A stretch of DNA of 6,092 nucleotides from a virus (IMGVR_UViG_2667527717_000005:1-6092); one strand, 5' to 3'; counted from the stretch's first letter, positions 1-6,092 are shown. Notes: generated by a model from the sequence alone, not told the origin. Program-made: numbers and translations.

Positions 1-139
1 ATCCGCATTTTACTGCCGCTGACGCTGGCCATCCTCGACGGCATGTCCGTACGCGTTGCGGATGAAGTTTTCATTCTGCCGCTGAATGCTGTCATGGAAT
101 CACTGTAACCCCGCGAAGCCGATCTGCATCCACTGGCCG
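1..139 (+). pseudogene. cheA: 3' fragment of a cheA-like chemotaxis histidine kinase gene (end of ATP-binding domain into start of CheW-like P5 domain); in-frame TAA at 106-108; homology ends at 139/140
   Basis: Plus frame 1 translates as IRILLPLTLAILDGMSVRVADEVFILPLNAVMESL*PREADLHPLA. This matches, from memory, the conserved segment of enterobacterial CheA that follows the G2 box (as I recall ...TIRILLPLTLAILDGMSVRVADEVFILPLNAVMESLQPREADLHPLAGGERV...). The frame stays CheA-like for 10 codons after the TAA, then diverges at 139/140. Fragment runs off the left edge of the window. Confidence 0.55.
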
Positions 140-994
140 AAGTTTCACAATCCCTTTTTGTGTCAGGGTACCGTCAGGAATACTCGTAATCTGTCCCCAG
201 GGGTGCGTATGACTACCCGCAGCCTTACTATTCGCCAGGTCATATGCCGCCTTCACCGCGCTCGGAGTCGCCGCCTCTGTCGTGCTGTTGCTATTGGTCG
301 CGTTACTAAGCTTCACAATCCCTTTTTGCGTCAGTGTGCCATCTGGTATATCAGTAATCTGACTCCAGGTATGACGATGATTTCGAGCCTCAATCAGTGC
401 CGCTTTCACCGCTTTTGGCGTAGCCGCTTTGGTTTCGTCATCACTGTCAGTGGCGTTACTCAACTGCGTAAAGCCTTTTTGTGTCAATGTAGCATCAGGG
501 TGGTTAGTCGAATGTTCGTGTTCATCCAGTTGCGAATCGACGTAATCCCGTGTTGCCAGCACAATACTGGGATCAACGGTGAGTGTTACCGCAGTCGTGT
601 TGGACACTTCCATAATGAGACGAATGCAAACTTGCTTACCGCAGCCGCCGGGTAATAGCGGTTTATACGACTCCGGGAATTTACCGATAGCAATGAGTTC
701 ACCATCGGTATCAAAAACGCCGACTTCACGTATATACCAGCCGCCGATATTTTCGGGCAGTACAAGTTCCGCAATTAACCAGCTAGGATTATTGGGCGCA
801 ACTGTTAATGTATTTAAATCACCGCGCCAGACCTCATGGCGTAATTTAGTTTGACTCGCCGTGGGTTCATAATATTGCCCACCGCCGTCTCCAACGGCCA
901 TCTTTTGCAGATGCAGTTGTTTTTTATCCGCAAGAGCACTGGCAATTTTTGCCATCCCTCTATTGGTCAGGAGGGTATAAAATTCATTATCCAT
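92..994 (-). CDS. Phage tail fiber protein, truncated (P2 gpH-like N-terminal baseplate-attachment domain plus about 2.5 fiber repeats; no receptor-binding C-terminal domain)
   Basis: 300 aa ORF. N-terminal motifs MAVGDGGG, HEVWR, IAELVLP and ESYKP follow the pattern of the P2 gpH / Mu S tail fiber N-terminal domain. It is followed by repeats of the TLTQKGxxxLSNAT...AATPxAVKAA type. Start ATG at 994 has GGAG 6 nt upstream. Residues 286-300 (RPVDADRLRGVTVIP) and the TGA stop are encoded by the antisense of the cheA-like fragment. Confidence 0.85.
   Translation of the reverse strand: MDNEFYTLLTNRGMAKIASALADKKQLHLQKMAVGDGGGQYYEPTASQTKLRHEVWRGDLNTLTVAPNNPSWLIAELVLPENIGGWYIREVGVFDTDGELIAIGKFPESYKPLLPGGCGKQVCIRLIMEVSNTTAVTLTVDPSIVLATRDYVDSQLDEHEHSTNHPDATLTQKGFTQLSNATDSDDETKAATPKAVKAALIEARNHRHTWSQITDIPDGTLTQKGIVKLSNATNSNSTTEAATPSAVKAAYDLANSKAAGSHTHPWGQITSIPDGTLTQKGIVKLRPVDADRLRGVTVIP
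140..520 (-). repeat. Imperfect tandem tail-fiber repeats inside the fiber gene (2 full units of about 51-56 codons plus a third unit cut off after 13 codons)
   Basis: Plus-strand motif ttcacaatccctttttg occurs at 144-160 and 312-328 (168 bp apart), with the related cctttttgtgtca at 474-486. Extended alignment of 140-200 against 308-368 is about 73% identical. At protein level: HPDATLTQKGFTQLSNAT..., DIPDGTLTQKGIVKLSNAT..., SIPDGTLTQKGIVKL|. Confidence 0.75.
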
Positions 995-1629: not shown

Positions 1630-2737
1630 CGCTAACTCCGGCGATCGTTACGTCTATTGCAGTGCATTCCGCCCATTCATGCGCCTGCAAAATACGTTTT
1701 GTAGGCAAGTTCAGCACAACGTCATAGACGCCATCGACCTGTAACACTTTGATTATCTGGTTTGGCACAATGTCCTGCCCCAGATGTTTCTGCCGCTGTT
1801 GCGTCCAGAGGCTAATCGCTTTACGCGCCGCAGCCAGAGTTGTCTCCTGATCGGCGGTGGTAAACAGCGTTAGCTGCGCACGGATCTCATACGGCACTCG
1901 AAGAGCGCATTTCGCACTCACTTTGTCGGTCAGCGGACGTTTTTTCTCCTTGCTAACCTCCTGTTCGATTTGCGCGAGCAGTTCTATTCCCGGCAGTCCG
2001 TTCAGGGTTAGCGGGTAGATCTCCACGCAGCCTTCTGGCAATCCCTCGTCCGGCCCCAGTACTGCAACGTCAATAATCGACTGGCTTACGGAAAGCGTAT
2101 GAAAGCGGTAGGCACCATAGCTGCCCGCATTACTAAAGCTTTCTGGTGCCAGTTGGATACGCTGGCGCAATGCGTCATCGCTCTCTTCACCGCAGCCGCC
2201 CGTTGACGCAGTCAGGTTGATTACGTTGATGTCATAATGACCAATCCTGTCGACCAGAGCGCTAATTTGTGCAGGCTGCCAGCCGTTACCCTGTTCACCT
2301 GCTGCGAGGCTGGTGGCAGGAACGGCGATATGCAAACTCCTGGCCGGGAGCAGAACATCTTCATCGGTGGCGAACATCACGCTATCAGAGGCACTGGCCC
2401 GCGTCCCCTGGGGAATCAGGATATTGCTGGTATACGCACTGACAACCGAAAACTGCAACGTCGTTTTTGCTGACTGCGCAGGCAAACGATGAACGCCCAC
2501 CAGCTCCCCTAAATAATCCAGCATTGGCGCGCGGGAATACGCGACCAGGTTCTGTTTCGCCGCTTCCTGAATGGCGATGCGTACAAGGTTTTCACGATAG
2601 GCAAAAAGGTCAATCAGCAACCGCTCGGCCTGTGCCGGGTAGAGCTTTTTGCCGCTGGCATCTTCGTATTGCGCAATCATCTCGCTGGTAATTTGCGCAG
2701 GATCGCGTTCAATAAAATTGGGTTCGGCTATCGCCAT
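1622..2737 (-). CDS. Baseplate J-like protein (P2 gpJ / Mu gp47 / T4 gp6-like wedge protein)
   Basis: 371 aa ORF with a central SFSNAGSYGAYRFHTLSV region that resembles the conserved gpJ-family core. Sits between the W-like and I-like genes as in P2. Start overlaps the W stop by 10 nt. Confidence 0.85.
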   Translation of the reverse strand: MAIAEPNFIERDPAQITSEMIAQYEDASGKKLYPAQAERLLIDLFAYRENLVRIAIQEAAKQNLVAYSRAPMLDYLGELVGVHRLPAQSAKTTLQFSVVSAYTSNILIPQGTRASASDSVMFATDEDVLLPARSLHIAVPATSLAAGEQGNGWQPAQISALVDRIGHYDINVINLTASTGGCGEESDDALRQRIQLAPESFSNAGSYGAYRFHTLSVSQSIIDVAVLGPDEGLPEGCVEIYPLTLNGLPGIELLAQIEQEVSKEKKRPLTDKVSAKCALRVPYEIRAQLTLFTTADQETTLAAARKAISLWTQQRQKHLGQDIVPNQIIKVLQVDGVYDVVLNLPTKRILQAHEWAECTAIDVTIAGVSDG

Positions 2738-3087
2738 AACACCTCCGTTGAGTTGATTACGCCGTCAGCGGCGCGCCATTGCACACGTAACGTCAGATGT
2801 TCACCGTCGATTACAGGTGTCACCTTCAGCAACCGGCAGCGCGGTTCCCACTGGCGGATGGCCTCTACCGACTCCCGTACCACATGCGGGATCGCCCGCT
2901 CGATGGGATAATCGATGTAGTGCCACAAATTGCTGCCAAACAGCGGTCTGTGGGGATCACTGCCGCGCGGTGTACGCAGAATGATGTGTATTGCCTGGTG
3001 AATATCATCCAGTCCGCAGACGTATTCTTCAGGCCGCTGCAAGGCCGGTTGCCAGTGCAGCGTTGAGGGGCGTGTTTTTGTGTTCAT
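2728..3087 (-). CDS. Baseplate wedge protein, P2 gpW / T4 gp25-like
   Basis: 119 aa ORF, the size and position typical of gpW (between V and J). Contains a gpW-like IxxILxTPxGS core (IHIILRTPRGS). Start ATG at 3085-3087. Confidence 0.8.
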   Translation of the reverse strand: MNTKTRPSTLHWQPALQRPEEYVCGLDDIHQAIHIILRTPRGSDPHRPLFGSNLWHYIDYPIERAIPHVVRESVEAIRQWEPRCRLLKVTPVIDGEHLTLRVQWRAADGVINSTEVLWR

Positions 3088-3150: not shown

Positions 3151-3184
3151 AAAAAGAGAAAACCCGCTATCAGGCGGGTTAAAA
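3151..3184 (-). terminator. Candidate rho-independent terminator or attenuator directly after the spike gene, between V and W
   Basis: On the minus strand, immediately 3' of the V stop: TGA-c-tttt-AACCCGC-ctgata-GCGGGTT-TTCTCTTTTT. That is a 7 bp GC-rich stem (3161-3167 pairing with 3174-3180), a 6 nt loop, then a run with 8 of 10 T. Seen directly in the sequence; function is inferred. Confidence 0.45.
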
Positions 3185-3185
3185 G

Positions 3186-3887
3186 TCAGTGTGAATGGTG
3201 GTTGGAGTTGCCACCGCTGTCCTGCAATGCGCCGCTGGCCTGAACGTTGCCGATCACGTTGACATTGCCGGTTATCGTGGCGGCGTTACCGATGCCTCCA
3301 CTTCCTGCCATCCCACCAAGCCAGGTGAGTTTTTTCATCACCGTGACGTTGCCGGTAAAGGTACTGAGCGGTGCGTCTACCGTTACAGCCATCGCTTTAA
3401 CATCGACCTTACTGGCTTCAATGCTGACGTCGGTGGCTTTCACATCAACAGTGTCGGAAGTCACGGTGACGTGTTGGGCTTTAACCTCAACGTTGGGCGA
3501 TATCAGGCTGGTACGGTCGATAACCTCAATCACGATTTTTTCGATACCACCGTTAATCGTAAGCTGGTGGGTGCTGCGGTCATATTCAAACGCTGCGCCA
3601 TCGGAAAACTGGACATAGCGTTTGTCGCGCGATGCTACTGGCGCGGTATCTACCGTTGAATATACTGCGCCCAGCACCACGCCATCTTCACCGTTATCAT
3701 CCAGCAGAACCTCCACCTGCTCTCCCATGTCCGGTAGCCAGTAGTCTTTATTGTCCTGGGAATTGCGTTGAAGTACCGCAAGCCAGTTGCTCTTCAGATT
3801 GTCACACTCTGGAAGCGTGACTCGCACCCGAACGCTGGTTTCGTCAATATCGCTGATAATCCCCGTTTGCCGGGTTACTCCTTTCAT
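3186..3887 (-). CDS. Baseplate assembly protein V (central spike, P2 gpV-like)
   Basis: 233 aa ORF with an N-terminal OB-fold-like region (WLPDMGEQVEVL, GVVLGAVYS), then short V/T-rich beta-helix-like repeats (VDVKATDVSIEASKVDVKA, GNVTV, GNVNVIGNV), and a C-terminal His cluster NHHSH. A strong Shine-Dalgarno AAGGAGG lies 5 nt upstream of the ATG. Confidence 0.88.
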   Translation of the reverse strand: MKGVTRQTGIISDIDETSVRVRVTLPECDNLKSNWLAVLQRNSQDNKDYWLPDMGEQVEVLLDDNGEDGVVLGAVYSTVDTAPVASRDKRYVQFSDGAAFEYDRSTHQLTINGGIEKIVIEVIDRTSLISPNVEVKAQHVTVTSDTVDVKATDVSIEASKVDVKAMAVTVDAPLSTFTGNVTVMKKLTWLGGMAGSGGIGNAATITGNVNVIGNVQASGALQDSGGNSNHHSH

Positions 3888-3900
3888 ATTTCCTCCTTAC
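3888..3900 (-). promoter_or_regulatory. Ribosome-binding site for the V gene, overlapping the stop codon of the D gene
   Basis: Minus strand reads TAAGGAGGAAATATG: the D stop TAA is followed directly by AAGGAGG and then the V ATG after a 5 nt spacer. Confidence 0.7.
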
Positions 3901-4937
3901 TGGCTGGTCGCTGGCCCGCGTGACACGTCGATTTCAGTGGTATAGCCGCTGCGCACAAAACTGTGAGTAGATTTATCAATCAGCCACTGACCGGAAAGCA
4001 CGCCAAAATCGGTCAGTTCAATTTTATTGCCCGCCGTCAGTTCCGGGCAGCCCATCATTGTGAGCGTTCCGGTTTGCTGATATTCGTTGTGGCTGTCGAG
4101 TGCAGCGTTGGCCTTTGCCTGTGCTGCGCCAATGTCCGTCGCCCGACTGTTCAGTTTTAGCGTGTCGGCACTGGTGCCGACTCCACGGGCAGACGGTTTT
4201 TGCTGGCTGTCGTGGGTGTAGATAACCAGTTCTTTTTTCTTACTATTTTGATGCTGTACGGTGGCGTTTTTGTAGATACGGTTAATGGTATCTTTGAAGG
4301 TGAAATGCGAAACGTCTTTGCGGTCGATCGTTTTTACCGGTGCCAGGCAGCGCAGCGTGGGTAAATGTGAAAAAATCAGCTCTTTTGTCGTCACTTTTAC
4401 GGCATAACCATATTCACTGGCCAGACGTTTGAGAAATCCAACATCGGTTTCACCATACTGCGTTACCCGGTCGATGGTGAGCGGCTCGATTTTGCCCACC
4501 AGTTTCAGACCGTGCGTTTGCGCGATACGGCTGGCGATAGCCGAAAGCGTCGTCTCTTCAAAGCCCTGGCTGTTACGCGTGCGTAGCGCCTGATTGACGG
4601 AAGTGGCGATGCCATCAATATTTACCGTAGAAGGTGGCGATGAAATATCAATTTTATCAATAATATACTGACCACAATCGAGCAGCTTTTCCCCCTGATA
4701 ACCCATATGCAGCGCCAGCGTATCGCCTTTGCCGGGATACCACTCTTTTATCCAGCGTCCATCGGTGTCATCCAGTGTAATCGCGATGGTATCCGACTCG
4801 TTTTTAATACTGTCCTGGTAACTGATGCTGGTGACATAAGGCGTGATGTCATAAGTGATATCTTTATGCCCATACCAGAGGGTAAAAATGGGCGTGAGTG
4901 TTGCAAAGACGCCGCCAGTTACGCTTATCTCAGCCAT
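3897..4937 (-). CDS. Tail protein D (P2 gpD / Mu gpP-like late control D protein; baseplate hub)
   Basis: 346 aa ORF in the conserved position between X and V. Size and layout are consistent with the gpD family. Start ATG (4935-4937) lies inside the last codons of X (13 nt overlap), with GGAG upstream. Confidence 0.8.
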   Translation of the reverse strand: MAEISVTGGVFATLTPIFTLWYGHKDITYDITPYVTSISYQDSIKNESDTIAITLDDTDGRWIKEWYPGKGDTLALHMGYQGEKLLDCGQYIIDKIDISSPPSTVNIDGIATSVNQALRTRNSQGFEETTLSAIASRIAQTHGLKLVGKIEPLTIDRVTQYGETDVGFLKRLASEYGYAVKVTTKELIFSHLPTLRCLAPVKTIDRKDVSHFTFKDTINRIYKNATVQHQNSKKKELVIYTHDSQQKPSARGVGTSADTLKLNSRATDIGAAQAKANAALDSHNEYQQTGTLTMMGCPELTAGNKIELTDFGVLSGQWLIDKSTHSFVRSGYTTEIDVSRGPATSQ

Positions 4938-5134
4938 GGTGGGATCTCCGATAAGGTTTTATTGACGGAAATGACCGGAATGATGAGCTGAATACCGGAA
5001 GGCAGTACCGGATAAATGGCGACATGTGGATTGGCTGCGATAATGCGTTCATAAGCCAGTGCATCGCCGTAGTAATGCCAGGCCAGGTTATCCCAGCGTT
5101 CGCCATCGGTGGTGATATGTTCAAGGTATCGCAT
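4925..5134 (-). CDS. Tail protein X (P2 gpX-like small LysM-like protein)
   Basis: 69 aa ORF with a WHYYGDALAYERIIAANP motif resembling the gpX-family YYG...AANP signature. Its ATG shares a base with the U-like gene stop (TAATG at 5132-5136). Confidence 0.8.
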   Translation of the reverse strand: MRYLEHITTDGERWDNLAWHYYGDALAYERIIAANPHVAIYPVLPSGIQLIIPVISVNKTLSEIPPWLR

Positions 5135-6087
5135 TACCAGCTCCTCGTAATGGTCGCGGCAGCAAGCTGGCTCACTGCGGGAGTGGTTTGTTGTACCGTT
5201 GTTCGTGCCTGATCAACCAACGTTGCGGCTTTATCAAACGTCGCTTCGGCGATGTTGCTGGCAATGTCGTCGAAAAGTGTCTGAGCATGGTCAACCAGCG
5301 TACTGGCGTCATTGGCGCAGTCCCGTATACCTGGCATGTTACCCAGTAAAGCTTTAATCTGAGCCGACAACGCTTTTGGGAGTCCTGCCAGCATTTGCAG
5401 ATCCATTGGCTGTTTAAACAGGGTTTCGATGGCGTCGATAGTCTTTTTCAACGACGTAATTATCTTTTCACACTTTTCTTTTAACGCTTTGGCCTCTTTA
5501 ATCAGTGCTTTCACTTTTGCCACTGTTTTTTTAATATCTTCAATGGTTTGCGCCAGTTCATCGAGCATCTCTTTGGCTTTGCGCATACCTTCTTCAATGG
5601 CGTTCAATATCTGATACAACCAGGACTCCACCTTATTCGGAAAATCGCTCGCCTTTTCCTCGATATTAGGCTCCTGGGTGGTAATTGCCGGGGGCAGCAG
5701 TGGGTTTTTCGGATCGCCGGTATACTCCTGGAGCGACATTGTTCCGCTTTGGGCAATGACATTGCCCCAGGGATCGGTGTGCTGGTGAGTGGCGGTTAAC
5801 TCTGTAATTACAAACCAGCCGCGATAATCTCCGTTGCCAAACACCAGCGCCATTGCTTTGTGAGCAAGCATGGCTTCACGCAGTCGATTCAGCTCTGTTG
5901 TGGGTTGGCAAAACTGGCTGTGCAGGGAAAATTCCAGCGCCAGCATATCCAGCTTATCGCCAATAAACTGCACGCCGGGTTTGCCTTCTATACGGGCATG
6001 TGTGGCGTAATCCACGCCCATTGTGCTTTTAAAGCCGTCCCAGAATGTGACAACTTTAAATTCAATCTCTCCTAAAACGGCATACAT
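5134..6087 (-). CDS. Tail protein with a P2 gpU-like N-terminal region and a long coiled-coil C-terminal extension (possibly Mu DNA-circulation-protein-like)
   Basis: 317 aa ORF. The N-terminus (MYAVLGEIEFKVV...GDYRGWFVITELTATH) resembles gpU-family proteins and the gene sits directly upstream of X and D as in pyocin-type clusters. The C-terminal 170 or so residues are K/E/A-rich with heptad-like periodicity. Start ATG at 6085-6087 is 5 nt from the window edge, so the true start is not certain. Confidence 0.6.
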   Translation of the reverse strand: MYAVLGEIEFKVVTFWDGFKSTMGVDYATHARIEGKPGVQFIGDKLDMLALEFSLHSQFCQPTTELNRLREAMLAHKAMALVFGNGDYRGWFVITELTATHQHTDPWGNVIAQSGTMSLQEYTGDPKNPLLPPAITTQEPNIEEKASDFPNKVESWLYQILNAIEEGMRKAKEMLDELAQTIEDIKKTVAKVKALIKEAKALKEKCEKIITSLKKTIDAIETLFKQPMDLQMLAGLPKALSAQIKALLGNMPGIRDCANDASTLVDHAQTLFDDIASNIAEATFDKAATLVDQARTTVQQTTPAVSQLAAATITRSW

Positions 6088-6092
6088 CAGGC

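Follow-up and report, generated by a model that had tools for sequence, protein, structure and literature searches.

Tail and baseplate genes of the window

The window analysed in this work, i.e. the whole 6,092-nt stretch of DNA, carries on its minus strand seven tail and baseplate genes and a fibre-like open reading frame (ORF) of 300 codons, and on its plus strand an internal fragment of cheA. In minus-strand order, the seven genes encode a GpU-like tail protein of 317 aa (5134-6087; PF06995 at residues 6-123, phrog_788 over the full length), the 69-aa tail protein X (4925-5134; PF05489), a gpD-like baseplate hub protein of 346 aa (3897-4937; PF05954), a V-like baseplate spike protein of 233 aa (3186-3887; PF04717), a W/gp25-like baseplate wedge protein of 119 aa (2728-3087; PF04965), a J-like baseplate wedge protein of 371 aa (1622-2737; PF04865) and a gpI-like baseplate protein of 210 aa (997-1629; PF09684). 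All seven are intact and, as the first-pass annotation of this DNA had stated, they are coupled: their start and stop codons overlap or lie a few bases apart, except for a 98-nt gap between V and W. The window ends 5 nt upstream of the GpU-like start codon; the gene immediately upstream in Escherichia coli A10 is that of the tape measure.

Two further features were seen among these genes. The C-terminal ~190 residues of the GpU-like protein (5137-5700, minus strand) are coiled-coil-like and gave weak matches to tape-measure-like and other helical families. The V-W gap (V stop at 3186, W start at 3087) contains a terminator-like hairpin, AACCCGCCTGATAGCGGGTT, and after it a T-rich run (3161-3180, minus strand); this position inside the baseplate operon is the site of gtrABC in Salmonella.

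The 300-codon ORF and its junction with cheA

The ORF runs on the minus strand from an ATG at position 994 to a TGA at 92-94 (92-994). It had been described as a fibre reduced to its baseplate-proximal domain and two and a half repeats, and these elements are present. Pfam searches returned a complete Phage_tail_fib N-terminal domain (PF12571) at residues 1-150 (E=9.2e-62; 207.9 bits for a cut-off of 23), together with Phage_fiber_2 repeats (PF03406; E=2.7e-38), of which two are complete and a third is truncated. The ORF is nevertheless chimeric. Positions 140-994 are the 5' 855 nt (codons 1-285) of a tail-collar type fibre gene that natively measures 1,770 nt (589 aa), and they are 100 % identical to codons 1-285 of the A10 fibre WP_039720181.1. 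Residues 286-300 (RPVDADRLRGVTVIP) and the TGA stop are antisense cheA and do not belong to a fibre. The earlier statement that the fibre has no receptor-binding domain thus holds for the ORF, from which the distal C-terminal domain is indeed absent, but probably not for the native gene: the last 15 codons are antisense cheA, and the fibre of the closest relatives measures 589 aa.

Positions 1-1000 of the window were compared by megablast with 5,426 complete E. coli genomes. Positions 140-1000 matched 'tail fiber protein | phage tail protein I' in 46 genomes (100 % in A10), and the fibre match stopped at query position 861, i.e. window position 140. Positions 1-139 matched the core gene cheA in 5,377 of the 5,426 genomes; in the A10 annotation they correspond to nt 1501-1639 of 1,965 (frame 1), in sense orientation on the plus strand. 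Identity was 138/139 in the best five of these 5,377 genomes, and no genome was identical.

In a three-way alignment with the fibre gene and cheA of A10, the window showed a blunt junction at 139/140, where the fibre gene is followed up to ...GTGAAACTT and antisense cheA from CGGCCAGTGG... onwards. There is no microhomology (0 nt), no common base, no IS end and no N gap. The fibre and cheA loci of A10 lie 2.5 Mb apart, in opposite orientation. The exact junction had no match in the GTDB species-representative genomes, and no junction-spanning record was present among the 5,377 matching E. coli records.

Within the cheA part, positions 106-108 (plus strand) read TAA in place of the codon CAA (Q536*), 33 nt from the junction, with a base at position 106 that is found in 0 of the 5,377 complete E. 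coli genomes. The product proposed by the gene caller in this scrap of cheA is a 35-aa partial gene ending at the same stop. Q536* may stem from a read error, the contig tail being thinly supported, or else be a genuine pseudogene mutation.

An exact-protein look-up in a collection of 153 billion genes retrieved the 300-aa protein from two contigs only, and no Logan assembly contig contained the ORF. Whether the junction is an artefact or real, the 300-aa 'fibre' is a fusion product and represents no native gene product; gradual decay is ruled out as its origin.

The contig and its sister assemblies

The look-up identified the window as the entire contig CDRS01000334.1 (6,092 bp) of the draft assembly GCA_000939135.1. 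This contig ends 91 nt beyond the stop of the ORF, so that the missing chaperone is an edge effect and is uninformative on the genome. The first-pass remark that no fibre-assembly chaperone is visible is accurate within the window; as a property of the element it finds no support, since it reflects the contig end and a DUF4376 gene follows the fibre in the closest relatives.

The other contig with the 300-aa ORF is CCBS01000432.1 (2,435 bp; assembly GCA_000938175.1), and there is no third. It is 100 % identical to the window over the common 2,435 bp and ends at the same base of cheA, both contigs stopping only 139 nt into this single-copy core gene. Once the cheA part is removed, the window (5,953 nt) differs from A10 by 1 nt, at position 1203 in gpI, and its ORFs are intact. 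The exact gpI variant of the window was taken as a lineage marker, and an exact-sequence look-up found it on nine contigs, each of at most 50 kb. They include CDRV01000159.1 and CCBT01000187.1, whose accession prefixes neighbour those of the two contigs above.

Positions 1-136 of CCBT01000187.1 (L008) are ldtA, with 100 % identity, fused to the middle of baseplate gene J; ldtA is a distant core gene (1.99 Mb in A10). The ldtA/J join lies at most 2 nt from the start point of CCBS01000432.1, and neither the window nor CDRV01000159.1 has a break in gene J. The ldtA tail is a second contig-end chimera in the same assembly batch. In each of the two pairs the longer contig is the CDR* one, which leads us to suspect that the CDRS and CCBS assemblies are two assemblies of the same reads.

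At 90 % identity the ORF falls in a cluster of 102 members, most of the 15 listed being 'partial' fibres from other drafts, located where a contig ends, and C-terminal fragments of the same fibre gene form another cluster of partials. A search for the missing 3' half of the fibre gene or for a reciprocal junction, with the C-terminal half of the A10 fibre as query, gave only fragments of the C-terminus, found in unrelated drafts and in one contig of metagenomic origin. The fibre gene looks like a habitual assembly breakpoint, i.e. a systematic gap of short-read assemblies. In many unrelated E. coli drafts (P0002-P0009, P0135-P0148), the fibre is split into an N-terminal piece of ~390-400 aa and a C-terminal piece of ~165-175 aa; judging from these lengths, the split appears to fall at a poly-glycine stretch.

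Full-length fibre and chaperone-like gene in relatives

The 589-aa fibre of A10 shares its first 285 residues with the ORF and continues with two more repeats and a Gly-rich C-terminal domain of ~200 aa, giving four scored PF03406 stretches over the full length and, at the C-terminus, a weak PF21722 match below the cut-off. The native fibre of this lineage is a collar domain, about 4.5 repeats and the Gly-rich C-terminal domain, the latter presumably forming the receptor-binding end. In A10 the fibre gene is followed on its 3' side by genes for a 201-aa DUF4376 protein and a 151-aa protein. CDRV01000159.1 and CCBT01000187.1 carry, in one contiguous stretch like that of A10, the 589-aa fibre gene, the DUF4376 gene, the 151-aa gene, RlaP, Band_7, yjbD and rluF.

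MS1718, a more distant carrier, has a fibre of 536 aa with a Collar domain (PF07484), and for its DUF4376 protein a second match was Caudo_TAP (PF02413), a tail-fibre-assembly family. The DUF4376 gene directly follows the fibre gene in A10, the sister assemblies and MS1718, and Salmonella has a gene at the DUF4376 position. Fibre homologues in Escherichia, Salmonella and Citrobacter measure 386-645 aa. A short fibre native to close relatives had been named as one finding that would overturn the idea of a defective element; the opposite was found, i.e. a full-length fibre followed by a chaperone-like gene.

Comparison of the window with MS1718 revealed ~94.7 % DNA identity, together with 366/371 identical residues in protein J and 341/346 in protein D. 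The two fibres are 70 % identical over the first ~315 residues, after which they diverge completely. Selection was judged from protein versus DNA identity, in place of a formal dN/dS calculation. As protein identity exceeds DNA identity and the fibre diverges, the pattern indicates purifying selection on the baseplate machine combined with a variable targeting end.

The N-terminal baseplate-attachment domain and the repeats of the window ORF are those of P2- and Mu-like tail-collar fibres (PF12571 + PF03406). In systems of this type a chaperone is encoded downstream, as in P2 (gpH/gpG), Mu (S/U) and lambda (Stf/Tfa), and the full-length relatives conform to this scheme, with a distal domain (Gly-rich in A10, Collar PF07484 in MS1718) and then the DUF4376 protein. 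The window copy departs from it in ending after two and a half repeats in antisense cheA, with no distal domain and no chaperone in the remaining 91 nt.

The 151-aa gene located 3' of the chaperone-like gene is conserved and has no Pfam match (phrog_1128; L001 11383-13776 and L010 1254-3647). A Salmonella ORF of equal length at the same position is tagged STM4198.

Origin of the cheA junction

We favour, with a probability of about three in four, the view that the cheA join is a chimeric contig end generated during library preparation or during assembly of a fragmented short-read draft. A normal fibre gene of 1,770 nt would have been cut at nt 855 and abutted to 139 nt of antisense cheA, and the cheA piece would have supplied the 15 junk codons and the stop shortly before the end of the contig. 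If the junction is such an artefact, the real genome probably keeps an intact fibre gene and its chaperone gene. We count as decisive the occurrence of foreign tails of 136 and 139 nt at contig ends of one batch, which argues for a technical cause. Contig-end chimeras of short-read assemblies likewise consist of a foreign single-copy piece shorter than about one read length, bluntly joined and recurring within a batch. The present case is unlike the usual ones in that the same tail is found in two deposited assemblies, which is unusual unless the reads are common to both. Homology-free blunt joins are typical of ligation or library chimeras. To our knowledge, E. coli is devoid of Ku/LigD end-joining and such joins are rare in vivo.

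The precise origin of the break was also considered. The longest exact repeats inside the fibre gene are of 50 and 49 nt, and a 21-nt repeat begins at nt 858; internal repeats were rejected as the cause of a break at nt 855, as none exceeds 50 nt and only the 21-nt repeat is located at nt 858. Arithmetic on the 139-nt and 136-nt tails, counted from the junction or from the private SNP to the contig end, yielded no consistent odd k-mer size. An IS insertion or a prophage end was rejected as the cause of the truncation, since cheA lies past the break and there is no IS end.

The junction could instead be real, an illegitimate rearrangement (inversion-type or more complex) in one isolate or clone that joined fibre codon 285 to cheA nt 1639. 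Both the targeting of the tail particle and chemotaxis would then be disabled, and any particles would be fibre-less or non-adsorbing, much as the first-pass annotation had supposed. An identical junction and a private cheA base in two deposited assemblies speak for this reading, as a random chimera fails to explain them if the libraries are independent. The contig path is also unbranched, which for a de Bruijn assembler implies that few or no reads continue the fibre past nt 855, and a private nonsense codon absent from complete genomes (Q536*) fits a dead cheA. However, both contigs break off after 139 nt of unique cheA sequence, a sister contig bears a comparable ldtA tail, of 136 nt, at a point where gene J demonstrably continues, and the join is blunt, with neither microhomology nor IS. 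A rearrangement would moreover have to connect the two loci across 2.5 Mb and opposite orientations, and a simple inversion would grossly unbalance the replichores: from our reading of the K-12 map, inversion between cheA and lysC would presumably move oriC and leave a replichore imbalance of ~15:85. The ORF is present in no further assembly and no Logan contig, and the sister isolates are intact. On this balance we judge a real rearrangement unlikely.

Far less credit can be given to a native short fibre, i.e. a 300-aa fibre without distal domain or a tailocin in gradual decay through point mutations or deletions at its locus. Only the length of the ORF speaks for it, and the last 15 codons are antisense cheA, every examined relative has a fibre of 386-645 aa followed by the DUF4376 gene, the 5' 855 nt are 100 % identical to the full-length A10 gene, and the rest of the cluster is only 1 nt in 5,953 away from A10 with all ORFs intact. 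The junction alignment and the sister assemblies exclude this reading. The least probable explanation, for which we see almost no chance, is a crossover in an invertible or shufflon-type segment (of the Mu Gin, P1 Cin or e14 Pin type) that left the C-terminal part flipped or elsewhere. It was raised from general knowledge of the fibre cassettes of Mu- and P2-like phages, whose tail fibres frequently have invertible C-terminal cassettes; yet the sequence past the break is cheA and no alternative fibre end, and neither an annotated invertase nor an inverted cassette was present 3' of the fibre gene in A10, MS1718 or Salmonella.

The proposal that the element is a decayed or otherwise defective one finds no support, given the abrupt cheA junction at a contig end, the full-length fibres of relatives and a baseplate that appears to be under purifying selection. 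As probable effects of the contig end, the 300-aa length and the missing chaperone give no basis for biological inference. More generally, when the stop of an ORF is less than a read length away from a contig end, the end should be checked for foreign sequence before the ORF is called truncated.

A candidate R-type tailocin between lysC and yjbD

The complete genomes of relatives place the genes of the window in an insert of ~17-18 kb between lysC and yjbD/rluF in A10 (L005 29563-34501 and L001 1-13776) and MS1718 (L006 3234-20887). The insert begins with a divergent Mor-family activator, followed by a putative holin, a lytic transglycosylase, a membrane protein, a Gp37-family protein and a small ORF. 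Then come the sheath, the tube, an assembly protein, the tape measure, the seven genes of the window, the fibre, the DUF4376 gene and the 151-aa gene, and the insert closes with two probable cargo genes, RlaP and Band_7. The baseplate segment is found once per genome in 197 of the 5,426 complete E. coli genomes, at 94-100 % identity.

A syntenic cluster occupies the same locus in Salmonella Infantis SARB27 (L011 7713-26483), whose record gives the LT2 tags STM4198-STM4219. Sheath, tube, assembly protein and tape-measure genes are contiguous upstream of the window genes in A10, MS1718 and Salmonella. The lysis cassette and the Mor-family regulator are annotated by name in A10 and MS1718; in SARB27 a Mor-family gene and one for an SLT transglycosylase are annotated, and hypothetical ORFs take the places of the holin and the membrane protein. 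The sheath, tube, tape-measure, lysis and regulatory genes that the first-pass annotation proposed to seek upstream of position 6092 are thus annotated in A10 and MS1718. No head, capsid, portal, terminase/packaging, replication or integration gene was found in the insert in the RefSeq annotation of A10 and MS1718 or in the annotation of SARB27. An intact Mu-like or P2-like prophage was rejected, as neither head or packaging genes nor a transposase or integrase are present at the locus in A10, MS1718 and Salmonella.

On gene content, the cluster is a candidate R-type tailocin that would derive from a Mu-like phage. A tailocin had been guessed from the window, and this part of the guess gains support from the headless cluster, the Mor-type activator, the lysis cassette and the complete contractile tail of the complete genomes. 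We found no paper describing the lysC-yjbD locus as an E. coli tailocin; the 'ST131 tailocin' (PMC9205054) is an intact P2-like prophage at another site.

The nearest parallels are the Mu-like R-syringacin of Pseudomonas syringae (Hockett et al. 2015, PMC4542187) and the R-type pyocins, which are likewise fixed, headless contractile-tail modules of the chromosome. They have in common with the E. coli cluster an activator, a lysis cassette, sheath, tube, tape measure, baseplate, fibre and chaperone, as well as a variable fibre/chaperone end. The E. coli cluster, known here from its genes alone, differs from R-syringacin in its host genus, its locus (lysC-yjbD), its gene order (sheath-tube-TMP-U-X-D-V-W-J-I-H) and its Mor-family regulator.

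The phage-remnant region STM4198-STM4219 of LT2 has the same flanks, lysC on one side and yjbD/rluF/pepE on the other. Starting at the Mor-family gene, the Salmonella region keeps the same gene order through the fibre, the gene at the DUF4376 position and the 151-aa gene, with ~80 % nucleotide identity to the window over the baseplate genes. It differs by the O-antigen glucosylation operon gtrABC (STM4204-4206 in LT2), inserted between V and W, and by another fibre (486 aa in SARB27), whereas the E. coli version has the 98-nt V-W gap and other distal cargo (RlaP and Band_7). That E. coli and Salmonella have the cluster at one locus suggests that the element is either old and common to both or was acquired more than once at this site.

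A broader proposal would read the window as part of an undescribed, domesticated Mu-like R-type tailocin, which E. coli, in ~3.6 % of its complete genomes, and Salmonella (STM4198-4219 in LT2) would both carry between lysC and yjbD and which would be maintained by purifying selection, with a fibre/chaperone cassette that varies in its presumed receptor-binding C-terminal part. Its strongest version would add a real cheA-fibre junction, which would make the isolate a natural fibre-less and non-chemotactic mutant. We put this proposal forward tentatively, with the odds against it. This by-product of the analysis, i.e. a headless contractile-tail cluster with a lysis cassette at one site in E. 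coli and Salmonella, outweighs the finding on the fibre. If particles are made, enterobacteria would have an R-type tailocin of their own, with relevance for competition between strains and for the engineering of bacteriocins.

A last observation concerns the distal end of the insert. In E. coli, the 151-aa gene is followed by a convergent pair encoding an RlaP nucleotidyltransferase and a Band_7 slipin, absent from the matching stretch of SARB27; these may be cargo or defence genes.
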